Positions 1-26,067 of a stretch of 40,257 nucleotides of DNA are shown in pieces; position 1 is the stretch's first letter, and every line of letters begins with the position of its first letter. The notes under the pieces are model-generated. The model did no database searches, had not been told where the DNA came from, and saw only the letters and a program-made list of their open reading frames with translations. Source of the stretch: Candidatus Anstonellaceae archaeon (GTDB lineage: Archaea; Micrarchaeota; Micrarchaeia; Anstonellales; Anstonellaceae). A program made the translations under genes and the position numbers. The stretch covers positions 1-40,257 of the forward strand of contig JAWBPP010000002.1 in the NCBI GenBank assembly GCA_038824715.1, read 5' to 3'.

Positions 1-316
1 CTTCGGCAAAATAGACTGTCTGCGCTGTCGAGGTGAAGTCTTCCTCCATTTTCTTCGTCAGCTTCTTATCAGCAAAGGCATTCCACTGAAAGACAAGGAC
101 GTAATAGAAGCATACACCCATCTTTTCGAGGTTCAGGTTTGGCGTTGCGCCAGCAAGCAGACCCTCTTCGGTGAATTTTTTCCTGATGCGTGAGACGGTT
201 GCCTTGCTGACCTTCATCTCCTTGGCTATCTCCGAATCGTTCTTGTCGCCGCCCTTTGTGAGGCTGATTAAGAAGCTTCTCTCTGTTTTTGTCAGCTTGA
301 TGGAACTTTGTTGCAT
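1..316 (-). CDS. Lrp/AsnC-like winged-helix transcription regulator (C-terminal part runs off the window)
   Basis: Hand translation of the minus strand from ATG 316-314 gives MQQSSIKLTKTERSFLISLTKGGDKNDSEIAKEMKVSKATVSRIRKKFTEEGLLAGATPNLNLEKMGVCFYYVLVFQWNAF... This has an HTH segment followed by the start of a small effector-type domain. It is absent from the ORF track because no stop lies inside the window. Confidence 0.6.
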   Translation of the reverse strand, partial: MQQSSIKLTKTERSFLISLTKGGDKNDSEIAKEMKVSKATVSRIRKKFTEEGLLAGATPNLNLEKMGVCFYYVLVFQWNAFADKKLTKKMEEDFTSTAQTVYFAE

Positions 317-443: not shown

Positions 444-659
444 CCTTGCCTCTGGCCGTTTTCATCTTCCACAAATTTGATTACGGGTGGGAGGCAGGCG
501 CACTGCTCAGGACATGCAAGCAAGGAGGATTTGGCTGACCTCATAAAGGCGATTAACCCGAAGCTGCTTATACCGATTCATACTGAAAAGGCGGAGGATT
601 TCAAGGGGCTGCACGCAAACGTGAAGATACCTGAAGAAGGGAAGACGATGGAGATTTGA
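444..659 (+). pseudogene. C-terminal relic of a metallo-beta-lactamase / beta-CASP (RNase J-like) gene
   Basis: The frame opens just after a TAG at 441-443. The translation ...AHCSGHASKEDLADLIKAINPKLLIPIHTEKAEDF... resembles the last conserved motifs (H-x-SGHA ... P-x-H-[GT]-E) of MBL/beta-CASP nucleases. Only about 60-70 codons remain out of an expected >400, and there is no room for the N-terminal part. Confidence 0.55.
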
Positions 660-677
660 TTCCAAATTTGAGATTAT

Positions 678-2150
678 TTATATATAAAATTTAAACCTGG
701 GACTACGTTCTTTTACAGAGGGATTAGAAACCAATATCTCTCCAACTGCATTTGAAAATCCTATTGTAACTGGTTGTGAATCTCCAAACTTACAGCTATT
801 ATAGTTAAGTTTTGTAAGCCCTAGGATGTCTTTTGAGACTTGCACGATGGAAGCTTCGCCATGCTGTATGTCTATTCTTAGTGGTACGGGGACTTCCCAA
901 CCATCATAGGAGTTAAGAGACGGCTTGAAACCCGATGTCCAAAGAAAACCTGTCCTTGGACTTGCCTTTAGGAATGTGCCTCGCATAACAGGATATTTCC
1001 CTAGACGGAAAAGGCGCATTGATTTATCAGCCCTAACCCGGATACCGACTAGTTTTACTCCAATCGGGCAAGCTTCTTGATACCCTGAAAACTCGTCCGC
1101 GCTTATATCAGAGCGTGCATGTAAGAAGATTTCTGTAAGTTTCTTTCCCTCTAATTGCTCGTAGGTGGCCAAAACACCCTTAAGTAAATTCTTTGCGGCT
1201 ATGCTAGAGAGATGAAACTGATCGTCTTTTTCAGAATACCATGGACCTTCATCGCCAAGAAATACGACGCCATCGCCTGAATCTAGAAACATTTGCGCTG
1301 CACAACATGCTGTTTTGCTAGCCATTTCAGCATTAGTCTTTCTAAAAGAGATTCCAACATAACATACACCTTCTCTCGCAGAAGCCAATTTCCATGGTTT
1401 CCCGCCTGCCTTGTAAAAGAGTGTTGTGCAGAGGTTCCATGCACGATCAGACAATGGAGTCACTTTTCGTTCGTCAGTTAGTGTAGATTCCCTTACTATT
1501 TGAATAGGTACGCCATATTTCATTGTCCTTGCCTTAATCTGACGACGAAAATCAACCGATAGTTTATATGTTTCGATATCCCATGCACCGCTTATAGAAG
1601 TTTGCCCTGCCGCACGGTCTTTTCGGACACTTAGAGGGACGGACTCGCCCCATCCATCAGAAACACTGGACAAAGGACGACAATTTAACCACACTTCATC
1701 TGGAACGACGCAAACAAGCACATGGAAAGCTTCATCTTTTTTCTCTATAAGTGATATACCGTCTATATATTTTTGGACTACATCAAAAGCACGTTGATTG
1801 GGGTCGCGTTGATGTGAAGCTTTGATTAGCTCAGCTTCATCTATCTCGAACTGAAATGCGGGAGTTTCAGGCCACGTCGAATCTAGAGCTTCTCTAAATC
1901 CTGGAAAGAGGGGCCAAAGTTTCTGATTCTTTAGATTAGGATATATTGGAAAGTTGATTATCTTGGACCAATTAGCAAATTCACGAATGCCACTAGGAGT
2001 ACCAATAACACCGTATATTATATTTTTTGGATGCGAACTCATATCTGTATCGTGTGGTCCAAACAACGATAATCCGTCATGAGGATCAAAAAGTTTTTGG
2101 TCATACCTGAAGGAAAGTAACGGCTCGCTAAATATAGTGGTGGTGCTCAT
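678..2150 (-). CDS. Short prokaryotic Argonaute (MID-PIWI only, predicted catalytically inactive), the SPARTA-type pAgo subunit
   Basis: The 490-aa product starts EPLLSFRYDQKLFDPHDGLSLFGP. It contains YKAGGKPWKL, ACCAAQMFLDSGDGVVF, GPWY and LTKLNYNSC, and ends RFKFYI. No N or PAZ domains are present. Its ATG overlaps the upstream TIR-APAZ stop (ATGA at 2147-2150). Confidence 0.9.
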   Translation of the reverse strand: MSTTTIFSEPLLSFRYDQKLFDPHDGLSLFGPHDTDMSSHPKNIIYGVIGTPSGIREFANWSKIINFPIYPNLKNQKLWPLFPGFREALDSTWPETPAFQFEIDEAELIKASHQRDPNQRAFDVVQKYIDGISLIEKKDEAFHVLVCVVPDEVWLNCRPLSSVSDGWGESVPLSVRKDRAAGQTSISGAWDIETYKLSVDFRRQIKARTMKYGVPIQIVRESTLTDERKVTPLSDRAWNLCTTLFYKAGGKPWKLASAREGVCYVGISFRKTNAEMASKTACCAAQMFLDSGDGVVFLGDEGPWYSEKDDQFHLSSIAAKNLLKGVLATYEQLEGKKLTEIFLHARSDISADEFSGYQEACPIGVKLVGIRVRADKSMRLFRLGKYPVMRGTFLKASPRTGFLWTSGFKPSLNSYDGWEVPVPLRIDIQHGEASIVQVSKDILGLTKLNYNSCKFGDSQPVTIGFSNAVGEILVSNPSVKERSPRFKFYI

Positions 2151-3478
2151 GAATCTTCATCCTCAATTTCTTCTTCATATTGTTCGAGTTCTAAGGCTAC
2201 AGAAGGCGAAACGCCGGGCGCAGGATCACGAACAGATAATGGAACGGAGTCTTCTATCAAACTGCTCGAAGCTATAACTTGTTTTTGTACATCGCCGCCA
2301 ACGATAATCTCGCTTTTTCCATTAGACAAGAACATCATCATGGCAAGATAGCGCTTTAGCCATTCTTCATTCCACCATTCTTTGCATACGCTCTTTCTTC
2401 GTGAATTTACACCTCTTCCTCGTATTGGTTCGCCGCCAAGGTTAGTTATGTGTAAGTGGATACTGATAGAAGATATGAAGGAATCATGCCCAGTCTGAAT
2501 TATCTTGAATTTTGGCGCGAGATGAAAAAGAAATTTTGTGTCTCCTTTTATGGTGTGTCTTACTCTTTCTCCCCCATATCCAATCGAAATGGGATGACCC
2601 ATATATTCGATACGAATTCTTTTGGGAGTTAAGGAACGAGGCATGTAGATAGCCCCAGTTTCGGCGCATAACTTCATTCCCCTAGAGAAGCATGCAACAT
2701 GAAGCGACTTCTGGAGGAGATTCGTAACTACATTTCTAGTTGGAATGCCGCATATTTCCTCGACTGTTTTCCAATCAAAATCAGTAACTTTTTCTGCATC
2801 AGAATCAATTGATGCAGGAGGATCAGTAAAAGCCAATACGTTCTCATCATTAACTGGATAAAATGCCCAATTCTCGTCTATGCCTGCAATTTGATGGCCA
2901 TTTGGTAGATAGAATTGTAGAACGTTTTCAGGTATTTTCAGGAATTGAAAACGATTTGAGATAACCTTTTCCGGGCGCCCGATTGTCGATTCATTATGCA
3001 TAAAGGGAGTAGCAACGATGCTCTTTCCATTTGACAGGAGGGGCTTTGGCGCATCTATAGATGCAAGTTTTTCCATAAGTTGATCAAAGCCATTTGCCCA
3101 ACCCTTATGAAATGGTATAAATGTCAAGTCGCTAATCATCCAGTTTAGCTCAGAAGGTTTCACTCCCCCGATATTCACGGGGATTATAAAATCAATTTTT
3201 CTTTCTTTAGACAGATTGACGGCTAAAGTTTGTTCTTTTTGAGGGTTTTCTTTCTGTAAGTATGCCTGGGACAGTACTGCTAGAAATCGAAAGGTCCTAT
3301 TTTTAATCGCATTATCTATATCCTTTGGGTAAGACTCTCCTCCGAGCTGGTTTAGTTTTGCACACCAAACGGCATATCCCTGTGCTGTTAATTTACGTGC
3401 CAACCATAAGACAAATTGGAGGTCTTCTTCTGCGTAACTTAAGAATAGATGATTTCGAGATTGCTCATCACTCTCCAT
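2147..3478 (-). CDS. TIR-APAZ protein (N-terminal TIR NADase domain plus APAZ), the SPARTA-type effector subunit
   Basis: The 443-aa product has TIR-like residues at about 9-140 (HLFLSYAEEDLQFVLWLARKLTAQGYAVWCAKL...FRFLAVLSQAYLQKENPQKEQTLAV...FIIPVNIG). The following ~300 aa have no other obvious motif and fit APAZ. The gene is 4-nt coupled to the short pAgo gene. Confidence 0.9.
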   Translation of the reverse strand: MESDEQSRNHLFLSYAEEDLQFVLWLARKLTAQGYAVWCAKLNQLGGESYPKDIDNAIKNRTFRFLAVLSQAYLQKENPQKEQTLAVNLSKERKIDFIIPVNIGGVKPSELNWMISDLTFIPFHKGWANGFDQLMEKLASIDAPKPLLSNGKSIVATPFMHNESTIGRPEKVISNRFQFLKIPENVLQFYLPNGHQIAGIDENWAFYPVNDENVLAFTDPPASIDSDAEKVTDFDWKTVEEICGIPTRNVVTNLLQKSLHVACFSRGMKLCAETGAIYMPRSLTPKRIRIEYMGHPISIGYGGERVRHTIKGDTKFLFHLAPKFKIIQTGHDSFISSISIHLHITNLGGEPIRGRGVNSRRKSVCKEWWNEEWLKRYLAMMMFLSNGKSEIIVGGDVQKQVIASSSLIEDSVPLSVRDPAPGVSPSVALELEQYEEEIEDEDS

Positions 3479-3507
3479 ATTAATCAGAGTATATCAGCTT
3501 ATTGGAG

Positions 3508-3516
3508 ATATTTAAA
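3508..3516 (-). promoter_or_regulatory. TATA-like box upstream of the TIR-APAZ/pAgo operon
   Basis: The minus strand reads TTTAAATAT, centred about 34 nt upstream of ATG 3478. No clear SD motif is present. Confidence 0.3.
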
Positions 3517-3739
3517 CATGCTTTGCGTAAGTCGATTTTAGGCAAGTGCGAGACTATAACACATTCATATCACGCAGAAATTTCTTAGGAAATCTACTGC
3601 TGCAACATTTTTATCGCCGTTCCACCGGCATCGTACTGGAGAAAGGGATATAAATGCAGAATGTTCCATTTATCGACGGTTGAGAGGGTCCAAAAAGGGG
3701 CACCGCTCTGGCACCAGCCATCTGCGTCCGATGGGAGCG

Positions 3740-3853
3740 CTATTTTTTCTTTTCCCTTCGCTCGTGCCAGGAATCCTTTTTGCGCGCAAGCTTCCTAAGG
3801 CTCGGATAGGGCTTCTTCTTTTCTTTTTCGGGGAATTCGTCCTCAATTGTCAT
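3740..3853 (-). CDS. Possible 37-aa lysine-rich small ORF downstream of phoU
   Basis: Hand translation gives MTIEDEFPEKEKKKPYPSLRKLARKKDSWHERREKKK*. It starts 18 nt after the phoU stop and is followed by a T5 tract. It is below the ORF-track size cutoff and has no recognisable family. Confidence 0.2.
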   Translation of the reverse strand: MTIEDEFPEKEKKKPYPSLRKLARKKDSWHERREKKK

Positions 3854-3871
3854 TGCAACCGCCCGAACTGC

Positions 3872-4528
3872 TCAGTCCAGCAGGTATTTCCTGTCGCCGG
3901 TCACCATGTAGCCGGTGGCGTTCGTTATGCGGATGGCGTTGTCAGCCGCGCGCTCTAGGTACTTTGATATCATATATGCGCGGAAAGCTACTTCTGCAGA
4001 CTGCCTTCCTTTCTGCGCCTGCCCCTTCAGCTTTTCAAGGAGGATGCGCTGGGACTCGTCGTTCTCCTTTTCAAGCTCCACCACTTCCTTAGAAAGCGCC
4101 ATGTCTTTTTCCACAAAGCCCCGTACGGCTATCCTGAGTGCGCCTTCGGCAGTCTTGCCCATGCTGGAAAATTCAGGCAGGCCAACCGTTATTCTCGTGC
4201 GCAAGAGCAGCATGGTCTGCGCGATTTCGGATGCGTAATTTGCACACCGCTCCAGCTTTCTTGCTGCATGAAGCGAGGAAGTTATGAATCGCAGGTCTGA
4301 AGCCACAGGCTGCTGGCGCGCAAGCATCTGCAGGCATTTTTCCTCAATTGAGACAAACTTCCTGTTGGCCTGCGAAGCCATGGCAACCACCTTCCTCTGC
4401 CCTGCCTTGTCCCATTTTTCTATGCACTTTCCGGAAAGAGAAAACATGCTGCATACCTGCTCGCCAAGCTCAGCCAAATCATCCTTCACGGAATCGAGCT
4501 GCTGGACGTATTTTTCGCGCACCATCAT
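3872..4528 (-). CDS. phoU: Phosphate transport regulator PhoU
   Basis: The 218-aa product has a two-repeat helical PhoU pattern (...VASDLRFITSSLHAARKLERCANYASEIA... / ...AFRAYMISKYLERAADNAIRI). It lies directly downstream of pstB. Confidence 0.85.
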   Translation of the reverse strand: MMVREKYVQQLDSVKDDLAELGEQVCSMFSLSGKCIEKWDKAGQRKVVAMASQANRKFVSIEEKCLQMLARQQPVASDLRFITSSLHAARKLERCANYASEIAQTMLLLRTRITVGLPEFSSMGKTAEGALRIAVRGFVEKDMALSKEVVELEKENDESQRILLEKLKGQAQKGRQSAEVAFRAYMISKYLERAADNAIRITNATGYMVTGDRKYLLD

Positions 4529-4548
4529 GACACCTCATTTGAACATGC

Positions 4549-5322
4549 TTAGCCGAACCTTCCAGTCAGATACATCTCCGTGCTCTTTTCCTTCGGGCGC
4601 TCGAACATTTCGTCCGTCCGGCCATATTCCACCAATTTTCCAAGGTAGAAATAGGCGGTGTAATCCGAGACGCGCGCCGCCTGCTGTATGTTGTGGGTGA
4701 CTATCACCACAGTATATTTCTCCTTGAGCCTGCCAATCAGGTCCTCTATCTTCGCCGTTGATATCGGGTCAAGCGCAGAGCAGGGCTCATCCATGAGGAG
4801 GACTTCCGGCCCTACTGAAAGCGCGCGAGCAATGCACAGCCGCTGCTTCTGCCCGCCTGAAAGCTCCATAGCCGATTTGCCAAGGTCGTCTTTGACCTCG
4901 TCCCAAAGGGCAGCTTCGCGAAGAGAGCTTTCCACGATGGAATTTATCTTGGCGCTGTCCCTCTCCCCGTGTATTTTGGGGCCATACGCCACATTCTCAT
5001 AGATGGATTTCGGGAACGGGTTTGGGAGCTGAAAGACCATGCCGACCTTTTTCCGAAGCAGCACCTCATCTGTCTGAGGAGAATAGACATCTGTTCCCCC
5101 GATCTTTATCTCCCCCTGAACCTTGCACGATGGGATGAGGTCGTTGAGCCTGTTTATGCAACGAAGGAAAGTCGTCTTGCCGCAGCCCGAAGGGCCGATT
5201 AGCGCTGTGGCGCAGCTTGACCTTATGTCAAGTGAAACATCGTAAAGCACGCGCTTTTGCCCGTACCAGACGCTGACGCCTTTTGCAGAAATTTCCACAT
5301 TGCTGCCTGATGGTTTCACCAT
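4549..5322 (-). CDS. pstB: Phosphate ABC transporter ATP-binding protein PstB
   Basis: Walker [13 protein letters not shown] signature [15 protein letters not shown], Walker [12 protein letters not shown]. The length and end motifs are typical of PstB. Confidence 0.95.
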
Positions 5323-6308
5323 TGGTATTTCCTCCGGTAGTGCGACCTTAAGATGATTGCTGACAGGTTGAGCAGGAGCACGAGCACAAGAAGCACGAGA
5401 GCAGTGCCATACTGCATGGGCTGGGTTGCCTTGAGGTTGAAAGATTGCGTGGACAGTATGTAGAGGTGGTAGGGAAGCGCCATCGTCTGGTCGAAAATCG
5501 AGGAAGGGAGAGAGGGGAGGAAATAGGCGGCGGCAGTGAAGAGTATTGGCGCGGTTTCGCCCGCCGCCCTTCCGAGGGCGAGTATGGCGCCCGTGAGTAT
5601 GCCAGGCATCGCATAGGGAAGCACGTGGTGCCAGATTGTTTCTAGCTTCGTAGCTCCGAGAGCAAGCGAGGCTTCCCGGAATGAATAGGGAACTGAGAGG
5701 AGAGCCTCCTCGGATGCCTTGATGATGACCGGAAGCACCATGACTGCAAGCGTTAGGCTGCCTGCCAAAATCGAGGCGCCAAAGCCGAAGAAATTCACGA
5801 AAAGGGCGAATCCGAAAAGCCCGAAAACAATGGATGGCACGCCTGCAAGATTGGAGATGGCGCTGTTCACCAATCGGAGAGCTTTGCCTTCCTTTGCGTA
5901 TTCGGTCAGGTAAATCGCGGTTATTACTCCCACAGGCAAGGCTGCGGCTATTGCCCCAACTGCAAGCGCCACTGTCCCGAATATGGCGGGGAAAATTCCG
6001 CCTTTGCTCATGCCTGCTGTTGGGCTTTCAGTCAGGAAGCCCACTGAAATCGCAGATGCGCCCTTGGAGATGATGTCAAGAAGGACGATGAAAAGCGCGG
6101 CAAGGACAATAATCGCGCACAGCTTCAGGAATGAGAATGCGGCTGCCTGTTCGAATTTCCTTTTTGCAAGGCTGGATGCGAATTGCGGCGAGATCACGCT
6201 AATCCCCCCCACGAGAATTTGCGGGCATTTGCCCGAAGGCAAATGGGCATGTGGATCTTTGCCCCTGCCCCCCATTTGTTCTGCTGGCGCAATGTTTGTT
6301 CGTACCAC
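5316..6308 (-). CDS. pstA: Phosphate ABC transporter permease PstA
   Basis: Polytopic membrane protein with the EAA-type loop ([22 protein letters not shown]). It overlaps the pstB start by 7 nt and abuts pstC. Confidence 0.9.
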
Positions 6309-7193
6309 TCATGCAAATCTCTGCCTTTTTATGAATATGTTGGCGGCGATATTGACAGTAAAGCTTATCAGGAAGAGCAGGCAGGCAATCATGAAAAGAG
6401 CCTGGTAGTGCGCGCTCCCTATGGCTACCTCGCCCATCTCGGCAGCGATTGTCCCGGTCATGGTCCGCACGGGGTCAAAGAATCCTGTGGGGATTACCGC
6501 CGCGTTGCCTGTTGCCATGAGCACCACCATGGTTTCCCCGATTGCCCGCCCGAAGCCGAGAAGGACTGCAACTGCAATTCCGGGCAAAGCAGAGGGGAGG
6601 GTAACGTGCCATATCGTCTCCCACTTAGTGGCACCCATTGCAAGCGAGGCCTCGCGAAAACCCTTTGGGACCGCGCGCAGCGCGTCCTCCGAAATAGTCT
6701 CGATTGTCGGGACCACCATGAGCGCAAGCACGAGCGCGCCATTCAGGGCGTTCAATCCGCTTGGCAGTCCGAAAACCTGGGAAATCGCAGGCGAAATGAC
6801 CACCAGCGCGAAAAAGCCGAGCACCACAGAAGGTATGCCTGCGATTATTTCTATGGTTGGCTTGAGTATTTCCGATATTTTCGGGCTTGCAAGCTCAGAG
6901 AGGTAAACAGCGCAGCCTAGCCCAAGCGGTATGGCAAGAAAAAGGGCGCCCGCAGTTACCAGAATGGAGCCGGACAGGAGCGCCAGCATGCCAAAACGCG
7001 GGTTGGCGGAGGTTGGCTGCCAGTCGGCCCCGAAAAGCATCTCGGAGAGGCTTTCAAACTGCAGAAGCTTCAGCCCTTCGGAAAAAAGGAAGAGGAAGAT
7101 GAGGGCGACCGCAAGCACTGAAGCGAATGCGATGAGCATCACTGCCCTTTTTGCAGCCCATTCGAGGCGAGTGTTTTTCGAGATAGCAACCAA
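6309..7193 (-). CDS. pstC: Phosphate ABC transporter permease PstC
   Basis: Polytopic membrane protein with FREASLAMGATKWETIWHVTLP. It sits between pstS and pstA. Confidence 0.9.
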   Translation of the reverse strand: MVAISKNTRLEWAAKRAVMLIAFASVLAVALIFLFLFSEGLKLLQFESLSEMLFGADWQPTSANPRFGMLALLSGSILVTAGALFLAIPLGLGCAVYLSELASPKISEILKPTIEIIAGIPSVVLGFFALVVISPAISQVFGLPSGLNALNGALVLALMVVPTIETISEDALRAVPKGFREASLAMGATKWETIWHVTLPSALPGIAVAVLLGFGRAIGETMVVLMATGNAAVIPTGFFDPVRTMTGTIAAEMGEVAIGSAHYQALFMIACLLFLISFTVNIAANIFIKRQRFA

Positions 7194-7222
7194 CCCTTAA
7201 CCAGCAATTTTCCTTCGCGGCT

Positions 7223-8074
7223 TCAGCCAACCCCGAAGTATCCGGTGCTTTCCGCTATTGACTGCCCTTCACTGCCAAGAACGAAATCAACGAATGCTTT
7301 GGCATCCCCTGCCGGTGCCTCGTTGGTGTAGAAATTGAGGGAGCGCGCAATCGAGTATGCACCTGACTTTACGTGTTCCTTGTCAGGCAGATAAGCAATG
7401 GCCGCCTCGTCTTTTGCAACAGGGATTATCTTCACATCTTTCCTCTGCCTTGCATACGCTACACCGGTGTAGCCTATTGCCGTCTTGCTTTGAGATACCG
7501 ACTCGACCAGCACCGCGCTTCCTGAAGAGTACTTGACCGCAGATGCATAGTCCTTATTGGCAAGCACATGCTCCTTCATGAATTCATATGTTCCGGAAGA
7601 GGATTCACGCGAGTATGCATCGATTTTCTCGTCGCTGCCGCCAAGCTCCTTCCAATTTGTAATTTTGCCCGTGAAAATGTCGCGAATCTCTGCAATGGTT
7701 AGCTTCTCTATCGGGTTTTCCGGGTGCACGATTATGGCAATGCCGTCGTATGCGACTATGGTCTTTACCGGCTCCACGCCTTTCTTCCTTGCAGCATCGA
7801 TCTCTGCGGGCTTCATGTCTCGCGAAGCCTCCGCTATGTCAATCTTGCTTTCAGTGAGAGCAGTGATGCCGACGCCTGAGCCTCCCCCGGTTACAGAGAC
7901 TTTTTTGCCCGGATTTTCCTGCATGTACTTTTCAGCCCATGCCTGCCCCAATATGACCATGGTGTCCGAGCCGCCAATCTTCAATTGCGAAGACTGCCCC
8001 TTTGCCGCGCAGCCGAAAAGCAGAAGGGCAATGGCGAATACTGCAGACAGTGCAACGAATCTTTTTTCCAGAAT
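7223..8074 (-). CDS. pstS: Phosphate-binding lipoprotein PstS (start codon uncertain and non-canonical)
   Basis: The mature part matches the PstS/PBP pattern (GGSGVGI..., SRESSSGTYEF). The frame upstream of the track's TTG start (7984) encodes (I)ILEKRFVALSAVFAIALLLFGCAAKGQSSQ, a signal peptide with a lipobox. GGAGG lies at 8081-8085. Confidence 0.8.
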   Translation of the reverse strand: MLEKRFVALSAVFAIALLLFGCAAKGQSSQLKIGGSDTMVILGQAWAEKYMQENPGKKVSVTGGGSGVGITALTESKIDIAEASRDMKPAEIDAARKKGVEPVKTIVAYDGIAIIVHPENPIEKLTIAEIRDIFTGKITNWKELGGSDEKIDAYSRESSSGTYEFMKEHVLANKDYASAVKYSSGSAVLVESVSQSKTAIGYTGVAYARQRKDVKIIPVAKDEAAIAYLPDKEHVKSGAYSIARSLNFYTNEAPAGDAKAFVDFVLGSEGQSIAESTGYFGVG

Positions 8075-22996: not shown

Positions 22997-24709
22997 TTAT
23001 GCAATAGGGAACAGCCCGGCTGAAGCTGCTGCGAAGAGCATTTGCGAAAGGGGCGCGATTGCCGCAAAGTAAAGCACCGATTTTTTCGGGTCGGACTCGA
23101 GAAAGCCGAGAGCAGAGGAAGACAGGGCTGCGCAGATGAGGAGGTAGAATTGCGCTGCTGGGAGAAGAATTGTAATGGGCGCATCGGACTGCTGGCTCGG
23201 ACTGCCACCCTCTTGAAACGCCATCGCTGGAACAGACGAAACCAGCGTGCCCAGAATCATAGGCACGAGGATTGCGGAGGATGCGAATATCGTGTAGCGC
23301 TGCAGGGCAAGCGATGCCGAGCGCTCGCGGAGCAGCGCGAAGAACGAGGCAATGTCCTGTGCCGTCTCGCGCAGAGCAGTATGCATGTCCGCTCCCGACT
23401 GGTAGGCCACGATTAGAAGGGAAAACGCCCGCTCAGCAAGCTGAGAGGGAAATTCTGCAATGGCAGCCCTCATGGAGCGCTCGAATGAGTCCCCTGCTTT
23501 TTGCCTGCGCAATGCGACTGCGAAGGCGGAAGACAGCCGCCCGAAACCGCCAGCCGCAAGCGAAGAGAGCATTTTTTCTGGAGAGAGGATTTTGTGCACT
23601 GCGGCTGCGCTGTAAAGGGCGTCTGGAAGGAAGCTTTCTGCTGCCGAAATTTCCCTTTGCGCAGCATAAAGCGCGCCGAAATAGAGTATTGGGCCGATGC
23701 ATAACGAAAGAAGAGCAAATGCGATTTGGCTGGAAAGGAAGAAAAGCGCGAATGCAAAGAGCGAAGCCCCTGCTGCAAATAAGACGAAAATTCGATAAGA
23801 AAACGGGAGCTTGGCCCTTGAAAAGTAATTGGAGAGCAATTGCCGCTCAGGCGGCTGTTGGTTTTTGGAAGAAGGGAGAAGAAGGTAAATTGCAAGCAGG
23901 ACTGCGAGGTTGAGAAGCGGGAAGACAAATGCGAATGCAAGCCATATTTGCCAGCCTTTCATCTGCTCGCCTGAAACGAATGGCGATACCGCAGCATATA
24001 TGCTGAAAAATGACGGGATGAGAGCTGAAACCGCGATGAAAATTATCGCAAGCACGGAAAATCTTCCTCCTTGCGTGCGCACTGAGGAAAGCTGCGATGC
24101 TGAAAGCTCCTCAGCCGCACGCTTGAGCGAATCCACGCCTGCCCCAGTCTCGTAGATCGAGGCAAGAAGGAAAATGCAGCGCTTGAGCGCAAGCGAGCGG
24201 CTGCTTTTGGAAATTGCAAGCAGGCCGGATTGAACGCTTGCGCCTGATTTTGCCTGCTTGAAGGCAATCGCAAAATCCTGCGAGAGGGAATAGTTCCTTC
24301 CAGCGATTTTTTCCATGCATTTTTCGAACGGCACGCCAATCTGCAGATAGACTGCGAACTCGCGCAAGAGAATTGGGAGCTCGGATTCGATTTCAAGCGC
24401 ACGGCGATAGGCAAGAAATCTGGGAAAATTGAGAAAGAAAAGGAGAAGGACGCCAAGTGCGAAGAGAGACAGTACGAATGCGTCTGTTGCTGCCAGTGCT
24501 CCTGCTAGGGAGAGAACTGCGAACAGAAGAAGCGAGCCTGCAACTGAAAGAATGAGCGAGCCTGACAGGTATTTGGAGGCGTTTGCCTCTGGAATGCCTG
24601 CTTGCAAGAGGGCGAGCCCTGTTTTCTCATATTGCTTTGGTGAAAAAAACTTGGCGCCAAATGAGAGGGAGCAGGTAGCAGCAATGAGACTGCCTCCTGT
24701 TGCCATCAC
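22997..24709 (-). CDS. FlaJ/TadC-like polytopic platform protein of an archaeal type IV pilus/archaellum-type machinery
   Basis: The 570-aa product has many TM helices and two T2SS-F-like repeats. It overlaps the upstream ATPase gene by 4 nt. Confidence 0.75.
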   Translation of the reverse strand: MMATGGSLIAATCSLSFGAKFFSPKQYEKTGLALLQAGIPEANASKYLSGSLILSVAGSLLLFAVLSLAGALAATDAFVLSLFALGVLLLFFLNFPRFLAYRRALEIESELPILLREFAVYLQIGVPFEKCMEKIAGRNYSLSQDFAIAFKQAKSGASVQSGLLAISKSSRSLALKRCIFLLASIYETGAGVDSLKRAAEELSASQLSSVRTQGGRFSVLAIIFIAVSALIPSFFSIYAAVSPFVSGEQMKGWQIWLAFAFVFPLLNLAVLLAIYLLLPSSKNQQPPERQLLSNYFSRAKLPFSYRIFVLFAAGASLFAFALFFLSSQIAFALLSLCIGPILYFGALYAAQREISAAESFLPDALYSAAAVHKILSPEKMLSSLAAGGFGRLSSAFAVALRRQKAGDSFERSMRAAIAEFPSQLAERAFSLLIVAYQSGADMHTALRETAQDIASFFALLRERSASLALQRYTIFASSAILVPMILGTLVSSVPAMAFQEGGSPSQQSDAPITILLPAAQFYLLICAALSSSALGFLESDPKKSVLYFAAIAPLSQMLFAAASAGLFPIA

Positions 24710-26067
24710 AACACCCCCTTGCCGAAGCAGAACTTCTGTATTTCATCAAAAGCTCGCGTAAATGGCATTCCGGCTTTCTTTCCCCGCAGGAATTTTTCGC
24801 GGAGGGAAAGCTCGCGGGAAATTTGCGATGGGGAGAGGCCTGAGCCTGCTGAGATTTTTCCGAACAGCGAAGAGAGCGCGGGACTGGAGAACGAAGTTCC
24901 ATTGAAGATTGTCCTTGGATGCAGCGCATCGCTTCGGGAGGATACGGCAATTTCCGTAAGTTTTCTTTCCTCCCCTATCTTGCGCCTGCGCGAATCGTAT
25001 GTTGAGACCCTCCGCTGCACCACAACCAGGTCGATTCCTTCCAAATCAGATTCAAGGCAGCCCATCATGCGCATGCGAAGAAGTGCATCGCGGGCAGACT
25101 GCGCGTGGAAAGTTGCATAGCATCCCTTTGCCTGCCCTGAAAGCGCTGACTCTGCAAAAGCCTGCGCTTCCTCTGCAGTGCGGACCTCGCCTATCACCAC
25201 GCGGTCAGGCCTCATGCGCAGCGAGTCGCGCACCAGCTCCACCATGCCGATTTTCGATTCTTCGAATGGGAGCAGACGGATTTGGTGCGGATGGGGAATT
25301 GATATTTCGGGCGTTTCCTCTATGAGAAGGATTCGCTCCGAGGCAGGAACGAACGATAGCATTGCGTTGAGAGTGGAGGTTTTCCCGCTTGCGGTGTTGC
25401 CTGTGAATATTACCGAGAGGTCGGATTGCATGGCAAGCGAGAGGAGCGCAAGCGATTTTGCCTCGAATGTTTTCGAGGAGAAAAGCCGGAATGGGGAGAA
25501 TGGCTCTGCGCCGAATTTCCTGATGGTAAGCTCGCATCCGGAGACAGGAGGCATGGAGGCGTGCAGCCGCGAGCCATCCTCAAGCACAGCGTTGATACGA
25601 GGCTGCTGTGCAGTTAGGCGCCTTCCGAGGTTCCTGCCCATCCGGTTGACAAGGGAGACAAAATAATCCTGGCTGTCTATGCAGACATTCGTCTTGAGCC
25701 AGCCTTTGCCCCGCACGAAAATATAGACAGGAAGCCCAAGCCCGATCACTGCTATTTCCTCAAGGGAATTGTCAGAGAGAAGCTGCTGGAAAAATCCGAG
25801 CCCGAATGTTTGCATATAGGCGGCTTGCAATAAGTATGAGGACTGGTCGGCATCAAGTTCTATTCCCTGTTGGTCGCAGCACGAGGACAGCAGCCTCTCG
25901 ATTAGTTTACGCGCTTCCTCTTCACTTTGCACGTCTTTTCTCTGCGCCGCGTCCCTGAATGCTTCAGAGACATCGGAAACAAGCTGCGATTCTTCTGAGG
26001 AAAGATGGGGCACGCTCAGCTTGTAGTCGGCTTTCCAATTGCCGGTTTTCCAGCCAAGCGACTGCAT
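24706..26067 (-). CDS. FlaI/VirB11/GspE-family secretion ATPase
   Basis: Walker A GNTASGKTSTLNA, ILLIEETPEI, and RMRPDRVVIGEVRTAEEA. Confidence 0.85.
   Translation of the reverse strand: MQSLGWKTGNWKADYKLSVPHLSSEESQLVSDVSEAFRDAAQRKDVQSEEEARKLIERLLSSCCDQQGIELDADQSSYLLQAAYMQTFGLGFFQQLLSDNSLEEIAVIGLGLPVYIFVRGKGWLKTNVCIDSQDYFVSLVNRMGRNLGRRLTAQQPRINAVLEDGSRLHASMPPVSGCELTIRKFGAEPFSPFRLFSSKTFEAKSLALLSLAMQSDLSVIFTGNTASGKTSTLNAMLSFVPASERILLIEETPEISIPHPHQIRLLPFEESKIGMVELVRDSLRMRPDRVVIGEVRTAEEAQAFAESALSGQAKGCYATFHAQSARDALLRMRMMGCLESDLEGIDLVVVQRRVSTYDSRRRKIGEERKLTEIAVSSRSDALHPRTIFNGTSFSSPALSSLFGKISAGSGLSPSQISRELSLREKFLRGKKAGMPFTRAFDEIQKFCFGKGVL

Follow-up and report, generated by a model that had tools for sequence, protein, structure and literature searches.

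The 40,257-bp stretch of DNA analysed here (the window, which is an entire contig of a metagenome-assembled genome labelled 'Candidatus Anstonellaceae archaeon'; Micrarchaeia, DPANN) carries a two-gene operon that encodes a protein with TIR and APAZ domains (TIR-APAZ) and a short prokaryotic Argonaute (pAgo). This operon is very probably an intact, horizontally acquired SPARTA system, composed of a clade S2A short pAgo and its TIR-APAZ partner, which by homology would deplete NAD(P)+ when triggered. The assignment had been proposed in a preliminary description made from the sequence without database searches, and it was supported in every sequence- and fold-level test that we ran; what the sequence shows is compatible with a working system. 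The locus is a divergent SPARTA of an uncharacterised RK-type clade and reveals no new mechanism or new kind of system. The elements of the operon are the following.

3509..3516, minus strand: candidate archaeal TATA box TTTAAATA, ending 31 nucleotides upstream of the TIR-APAZ ATG
2147..3478, minus strand: TIR-APAZ gene, first of the operon, 443 residues (NCBI MEM2137517.1, 'TIR domain-containing protein')
3074..3445, minus strand: TIR (NADase) domain, residues 12-135
2234..2986, minus strand: APAZ domain, approximately residues 165-415
2150..2233, minus strand: acidic tail at the C-terminus of the TIR-APAZ protein, its last 28 residues
2147..2150, minus strand: ATGA stop/start overlap (translational coupling) joining TIR-APAZ and pAgo
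678..2150, minus strand: short prokaryotic Argonaute (pAgo) gene, 490 residues (NCBI MEM2137516.1, 'hypothetical protein')
1410..1547, minus strand: MID 5'-phosphate guide pocket (R202, K206, Q217 and K247) and RNA-guide contacts (R220 and T223), mapped to MapSPARTA and TtAgo
681..1379, minus strand: PIWI domain with a broken slicer tetrad, approximately residues 258-490 (S268 codon 1347-1349, R346 codon 1113-1115, ending in KFYI)

Both open reading frames (ORFs) start with ATG and contain no internal stop codon. Positions 2147-2150 read TCAT on the plus strand, that is, ATGA on the coding strand, and the TGA stop of TIR-APAZ overlaps the ATG of pAgo, exactly as had been described. The peptide strings that had led to the domain assignments are all present in the translations (HLFLSYAEED, GYAVWCAKL, FLAVLS, KEQTLAV and FIIPVNIG in the first protein; LSFRYDQKLFDPHDGLSLFGP, YKAGGKPWKL, CCAAQMFLDSGDG, LTKLNYNSC and the terminal FKFYI in the second).

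The N-terminus of the first protein, previously described as TIR-like, matches Pfam TIR_2 with E = 1.9e-21. The PADLOC model Aga_TIR-PNTD1-PNTD2, which is the TIR-APAZ model of that collection, matches residues 7-419 (E = 2.3e-63). The best PDB matches of the single sequence are the solved SPARTA TIR-APAZ chains (E~1e-27), and a profile of 34 TIR-APAZ homologues (alignment A2) aligns with SPARTA TIR-APAZ chain 8qlo_A over positions 5-435 versus 2-432 with E = 9e-51. The same profile also matches the APAZ portions of HNH-APAZ 9om4_A and DREN-APAZ 9jsb_D. An AlphaFold2 model of the protein (pLDDT 84) returned SPARTA TIR-APAZ chains as top matches in Foldseek, with E~1e-26 and approximately 440 aligned columns. 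The global TM-score of this model is low because of the way TIR and APAZ are oriented towards each other in a monomer model; for the APAZ part alone it is 0.64-0.68, normalised by target length. The APAZ domain, which had been expected in the region after TIR from its size, is recognised there by the PNTD1-PNTD2 part of the PADLOC match, by the A2 profile and by Foldseek.

The residues on which the function of characterised SPARTA systems depends were mapped using the roles reported by Finocchio et al. 2024 (PMC10899771) and in the MapSPARTA activation paper (PMC10355822). The catalytic glutamate E82 (codon 3233-3235) aligns with MapSPARTA E77 and is invariant in the 34 homologues; the E77A mutant of MapSPARTA is inactive (PMC10899771). 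N175 (codon 2954-2956), likewise invariant in A2, aligns with the asparagine N174 of Map- and BabSPARTA, whose replacement by alanine abolishes SPARTA NADase activity (PMC10899771). Aspartate and glutamate make up 10 of the last 28 residues of TIR-APAZ (36%), inside the 21-45% range reported for the acidic stretch that extends the APAZ protein at its C-terminus, a feature of the S2 clade (PMC10899771), and the AlphaFold2 model shows a helix at residues 425-434 followed by disorder. In BabSPARTA, the acidic tail fills the nucleic-acid cleft and reduces guide affinity (PMC10899771). At the TIR tetramer interface, MapSPARTA R54 corresponds to K59, a conservative replacement, and R114 to D117 (window 3128-3130), a reversal of charge, with Asp in nearly all of the 34 homologues. 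R114 is an interface residue of the MapSPARTA tetramer and the R114E mutant is inactive (PMC10899771). This is the sole notable departure among the mapped functional residues.

The second protein is matched over its whole length by the PADLOC model pAgo_I (E = 1.3e-170). In phmmer searches of PDB sequences, residues 7-490 align with residues 7-507 of the SPARTA chains 8qlo_B, 8fex_B and 8ifk_B (E from 1e-98 to 1e-101), and identity to the pAgos of characterised SPARTA systems is 40%. The bit score is 343 for SPARTA compared with 191 for SPARHA, 108-125 for SPARDA and 82 for the next short-pAgo chain, 8in8_C. By score ranking alone, the protein is nearer to the S2A clade than to S1 or S2B, and SPARTA is the closest short-pAgo family, in line with the placement that had been expected. 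The AlphaFold2 model (pLDDT 78) has the pAgos of Crt-, Map- and BabSPARTA as its top Foldseek matches, with TM-scores of 0.79-0.86. The length of 490 residues and the end-to-end alignment with SPARTA pAgos, together with the full-length PADLOC and fold matches, bear out a MID and PIWI architecture with no N or PAZ domains. The matches of the two proteins are not due to chance, as the profile and structure E-values range from 1e-21 to 1e-170.

Searches with Pfam Piwi and NCBIfam did not detect the pAgo. The absence of a PIWI profile hit, which the preliminary description had proposed as a refuting result, would therefore have been misleading, since PADLOC, PDB and fold searches do identify the protein. 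Such loci are easily missed and are under-annotated in public records, because NCBI gives the product as a hypothetical protein, both general profile collections miss it and only PADLOC, PDB and fold searches reveal it.

In the MID domain, R202, K206, Q217 and K247 correspond to MapSPARTA H207, K211, Q222 and K263, and the RNA-guide contacts R220 and T223 to R225 and T228; all these positions are invariant or nearly so in 30 pAgo homologues. The RK motif is one of the two standard variants (HK and RK) of the MID motif in short pAgos (Ryazanova et al. 2018, PMC6299218). R158 is conserved as R152 of Map- and BabSPARTA, and so are the dimer-interface residues D139, Y246 and K487 (D133, Y262 and K504), while R379 and F488 are conservative replacements of K395 and Y505. 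The C-terminal residues K487, F488, Y489 and I490 align with K504, Y505, Y506 and I507 of BabSPARTA, and the C-terminal isoleucine, the carboxylate end of the chain, is kept.

The slicer site was compared with that of TtAgo (from pTT27) by aligning the family profile with hhalign. D478 falls on S268 and D546 on R346; the placement of the Glu finger in this comparison is not reliable, and the aligned block stops short of the fourth position. The register of the alignment is validated by the MID domain, where R418, K422, Q433 and K457 of TtAgo coincide exactly with R202, K206, Q217 and K247. Because two of the slicer positions are replaced, the DEDX tetrad is broken and the PIWI domain is predicted to be catalytically dead. 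A ...GFSDAVGEIL motif of the family consensus lies close to where the fourth slicer position is expected; its Asp is replaced by Asn in the pAgo of the window (N467, 750-752).

The preliminary description also pointed to an archaeal TATA box upstream of the operon. The octamer TTTAAATA is indeed present and would fit an archaeal promoter with a short leader; this role is plausible but unproven. It is plausible because TTTAWATA is scarce in the window, with 4 matches compared with 1.2 expected. Two of the four matches come from a palindrome, TTTATATAAA at 677-688, which overlaps the pAgo stop and is probably just the coding sequence of the final ...YI and stop. Scans of the window for sigma-70-type promoters and terminators gave matches not above chance.

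The conserved features suggest how the system could work. By homology with Map-, Crt- and BabSPARTA, the co-translated TIR-APAZ and pAgo would form a 1:1 heterodimer, in which the MID pocket of pAgo would load a 5'-phosphorylated small RNA drawn from the transcriptome and the acidic tail of TIR-APAZ would damp the binding of guide and target. The guide would pair with complementary single-stranded DNA of a highly transcribed or replicating invader (a plasmid or virus), displacing the acidic tail. Pairing would lead to pAgo-pAgo dimerisation and then to TIR-mediated tetramerisation, and the composite TIR active sites around E82 would hydrolyse NAD(P)+, with arrest or death of the cell, and presumably an abortive-infection phenotype, as the outcome.

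More than 4,400 database homologues of the pAgo are found at E < 1e-10. We scanned one genome per GTDB species with a pAgo alignment (A1), which yielded relatives in 310 genomes, and analysed the closest 80 (52-65% identity). In 77 of the 80 related loci, the gene immediately upstream of pAgo, in the same orientation, encodes TIR-APAZ. The query belongs to a large uncharacterised sister clade with members in Acidobacteriota, Planctomycetota, Chloroflexota, Poribacteria and archaea. Sixteen of the 80 species-level genomes are archaeal: 3 Micrarchaeota, 1 Pacearchaeota, 3 Methanomassiliicoccales, 1 Methanosarcinales, 1 ANME-1, 1 Halobacteriota metagenome-assembled genome, 2 Thermoplasmata/Thermoplasmatales, 2 Bathyarchaeia and 2 unclassified archaea. 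The same gene pair is also carried by a RefSeq assembly of Methanocella conradii (WP_283167671.1 and WP_283167672.1).

The archaeal setting had been described as the unusual part of the finding. This holds for the characterised systems: Koopal et al. 2022 found SPARTA in bacterial phyla alone among 283 RefSeq short pAgos, all SPARTA structures returned by our PDB searches are bacterial, and our literature search found no paper describing an archaeal SPARTA and no archaeal one among the solved or characterised systems. For sequenced genomes the description is overstated, given the archaeal share of the closest relatives and the Methanocella conradii pair, and PADLOC flags the operon at once. 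Large surveys of archaeal defence already apply PADLOC and DefenseFinder and list 'short' argonautes, although the one consulted here does not mention SPARTA by name (PMC12988326). Because close copies of the operon sit in many archaeal as well as bacterial genomes, the identification is correct yet fairly ordinary, and finding it in this archaeon is unsurprising.

The nearest relatives of both pAgo and TIR-APAZ are from Micrarchaeota. In neighbour-joining (NJ) trees, rooted on BabSPARTA and built from a taxon sample biased towards relatives of the query, the query groups with two Micrarchaeota loci, L001 and L002 (65% bootstrap, concatenated proteins). With the concatenated proteins, 81 of 100 replicates place it in a clade of archaea alone with at least 11 members, and 60 of 100 place it in one that contains 14 of the 16 archaeal sequences; with pAgo alone, 75 of 100 replicates give such a clade around it with at least 9 members. 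Bootstrap support for the exact archaeal SPARTA clade is weak (13-46%), and for this reason we claim archaeal clustering only as a moderately supported tendency, in which the archaeal copies appear to form a sub-lineage that excludes Bathyarchaeia. More distant pAgo homologues (38-41% identity) were found on 102 plasmids, of which 52 are conjugative and some haloarchaeal (Haloarcula, Halorarius), and on 8 IMG/VR viral contigs, which is consistent with mobility of the system. The plasmid collection also holds one record at 60-80% identity to the pAgo, outside the matches listed.

We could speculate that the operon represents an archaea-adapted SPARTA lineage, which circulates mainly among archaea (Micrarchaeota, Pacearchaeota, methanogens, ANME-1 and Thermoplasmatota) and possesses a re-wired TIR interface marked by the change of R114 to Asp. 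We put this forward tentatively and consider it rather doubtful. If it were true, SPARTA in a genome-reduced DPANN episymbiont might differ from the bacterial systems in activation threshold or assembly geometry, NAD+ depletion might act on a symbiont that depends on the metabolites of its host, and the locus would be a natural first archaeal SPARTA to characterise.

Several points weigh against reading the locus as a SPARTA that works in its archaeal host as the characterised ones do. The TIR oligomer interface of the clade may differ or be re-wired, because R114, which is essential in MapSPARTA, is Asp at D117 and nearly throughout the clade. K395 is replaced by Arg and R54 by Lys, although both replacements are conservative. 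TIR-APAZ is approximately 28% identical to its characterised counterparts. The logic of SPARTA would presuppose an NAD pool kept by a DPANN symbiont with reduced metabolism. Lastly, the operon lies 677 nucleotides from the contig end and the source is a metagenome-assembled genome.

The first of these points invites the idea that the locus keeps the architecture of SPARTA and has a modified activation or assembly or another output, such as a different TIR interface, the use of DNA as well as RNA guides, or another NAD-derived product. An Asp that is nearly invariant in the clade, whereas R114E kills MapSPARTA, would fit this scenario, and so would the limited identity to the characterised systems (28% for TIR-APAZ and 40% for pAgo). 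CrtSPARTA crystal structures with guide DNA exist, and NADase activation of SPARTA guided by single-stranded DNA is reported in one paper. However, conservation extends to the catalytic Glu, the essential Asn, the dimer interface of pAgo, the contacts of R220 and T223 with the RNA 2'-OH and the acidic tail. The fold as a whole superposes on that of SPARTA, and a partner residue can make up for a change of charge at a single interface position. We consequently regard a modified mode of action as unlikely and favour a SPARTA of the known type.

That the operon sits in an archaeal genome is supported by the rest of the contig, which encodes Nop5/Nop56 (PF01798, 2.7e-59) and an AglB core-like domain, in agreement with the archaeal label at NCBI and with the archaeal surroundings noted before, as well as housekeeping genes (pstSCAB-phoU, purL/purQ, tRNA-Pro and others). 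The features around the operon are listed below.

660..3650, no strand: low-GC cassette carrying the operon, GC 0.36-0.47 compared with 0.50-0.57 elsewhere in the contig, its right boundary sharp and near 3600-3650
3872-7984, minus strand: complete phosphate-uptake operon (pstS, pstC, pstA, pstB, phoU), directly upstream of the cassette
477-659, plus strand: RMMBL gene fragment, an ORF of 60 residues (PF07521, 1e-8), 18 nucleotides from the pAgo stop
1-316, minus strand: MarR/winged helix-turn-helix (wHTH) type regulator gene, cut by the contig end and divergent from the RMMBL fragment

The GC content of the operon is 0.414 compared with 0.523 for the remaining contig, and it switches inside the spacer of approximately 390 nucleotides that separates the cassette from the pst-phoU operon. 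The low GC content together with the sharp boundary indicates horizontal acquisition.

The left flank relates the window to another Micrarchaeota genome. The RMMBL ORF encodes no more than the C-terminal domain of an MBL/beta-CASP protein, whose N-terminal approximately 400 residues are missing, and it is thus the remnant of a gene. Its homologue is the 3' end of a full-length 455-residue MBL-RMMBL gene at locus L001 (63% amino acid and 69% nucleotide identity), which ends at the start of the TIR-APAZ gene of that locus. Relative to the 3' end of the MBL gene, the SPARTA cassette has opposite orientations in the window and in L001 (496-639 and 679-3453 versus 3241-7497 of L001). This arrangement is likely the result of a cassette inversion, or of independent insertion at one hotspot, and of decay that affected the MBL gene of the window. 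We considered MBL/beta-CASP as a conserved third component of SPARTA and rejected it, because no locus other than L001 among the 80 has the MBL gene; the beta-CASP gene that L002 carries approximately 1.7 kb upstream of the operon is no more than a distant relative (22% identity).

An ORF of the phage integrase family (3797-4561; PF00589, 1.7e-10) is the direct upstream neighbour of the operon in L002, a hint that integrative elements may carry the cassette. No convincing att-like direct repeats or terminal inverted repeats bound the cassette in the window. A 20-nucleotide inverted repeat (522-541 and 4467-4486) was tried as a boundary and discarded, as it is just two K[ED]DLA[DE]L-coding stretches, in the RMMBL fragment and in PhoU.

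Recent acquisition raises the question of whether the cassette is a silent or non-functional passenger in this host, intact merely through its recency. Its GC content, 11 points under that of the host, would be expected for such a passenger, and the decay of the neighbouring MBL gene and the inversion relative to the closest relative speak for recent rearrangement. Against it, the two ORFs run uninterrupted through 2.8 kb and retain all key residues, the start/stop coupling is kept, a scarce TATA-like element lies at the right distance, and the grouping of the three Micrarchaeota copies (65% bootstrap) suggests retention in the lineage. A silent passenger is accordingly quite improbable in our view, and we retain the interpretation as a probably functional SPARTA. 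Scarcely credible is an assembly or binning artefact that joined a bacterial cassette to an archaeal contig end, as the deviant GC, the position near the contig end and the metagenomic source might suggest, given that the cassette is flanked on both sides in one contig (pst-phoU on the right, the RMMBL fragment and the regulator gene on the left), that the sole homologue of the RMMBL fragment among the 80 loci adjoins the SPARTA operon of another Micrarchaeota genome, and that the closest relatives of pAgo and of TIR-APAZ also come from Micrarchaeota.

The surroundings do not constitute a multi-system defence island, as a PADLOC scan of 9 other ORFs of the window gave no defence-gene match. 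The regulator gene weakly resembles Csa3/CARF models (PADLOC E~1e-5), matching solely their wHTH part, and no CARF domain is visible in the portion of the gene that is present (1-316). No CRISPR arrays or tandem repeats were found in the window. Farther away, adjacent genes for T2SSF-like (570 residues) and T2SSE-like ATPase (453 residues) proteins at 22997-26067 on the minus strand presumably form an archaeal type IV pilus or archaellum-type assembly module.

These results show that SPARTA is not confined to bacteria, as the operon recurs in at least 16 archaeal genomes at species level, among them several DPANN lineages whose genomes are very small. The locus is a concrete candidate for the first biochemical test of an archaeal SPARTA, for which E82, N175 and the MID residues R202 and K206 are identified as control residues. 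It also raises the question of how a suicide system that depletes NAD would operate in an obligate symbiont.

Among known systems, the query is closest to MapSPARTA, CrtSPARTA and BabSPARTA (Koopal et al. 2022; PDB 8fex, 8isy, 8qlo and related entries), with which it shares the order of TIR-APAZ followed by a MID-PIWI pAgo and homology over the full length of both proteins in sequence and fold. The common features include the TIR Glu, the essential Asn, the acidic tail, the 5'-phosphate MID pocket, the RNA-guide contacts, the pAgo dimer-interface residues and the broken slicer tetrad. The query differs in its archaeal DPANN host, in its sequence (identity of approximately 40% for pAgo and 28% for TIR-APAZ), in having an RK rather than HK MID motif, and in the substitutions R114 to D117, R54 to K59, K395 to R379 and Y505 to F488 relative to MapSPARTA.

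SPARSA, SPARDA and SPARHA, with SIR2-, DREN- and HNH-APAZ partners, likewise combine a short pAgo with an APAZ effector and guide-dependent activation by the target, and their APAZ and pAgo folds are recognisably similar. Their effectors are SIR2 or nucleases, compared with TIR in the query, and their pAgo scores are 82-191 bits compared with 343 for SPARTA. A characterised archaeal short-pAgo system that acts by abortive infection is that of SiAgo in Sulfolobus islandicus, with SiAga1 and SiAga2 reported as the partners (PMC11788926). This system does not occur among the PDB sequence matches of either query protein. The Aga2 protein of Sulfolobus islandicus is a membrane effector and is not known to be a TIR-APAZ NADase.

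The nearest counterparts of the query are uncharacterised archaeal SPARTA loci with the same operon, found in Micrarchaeota (JAHJBM010000070.1 and JAJZZO010000018.1), Methanocella conradii, Methanomassiliicoccales, ANME-1, Pacearchaeota and others. Their proteins are 55-65% (pAgo) and 38-45% (TIR-APAZ) identical to those of the query and cluster with them in the NJ trees. The gene neighbourhoods of these loci differ, and a flanking MBL-RMMBL gene is common to the query and L001 only, with the cassette in opposite orientation.

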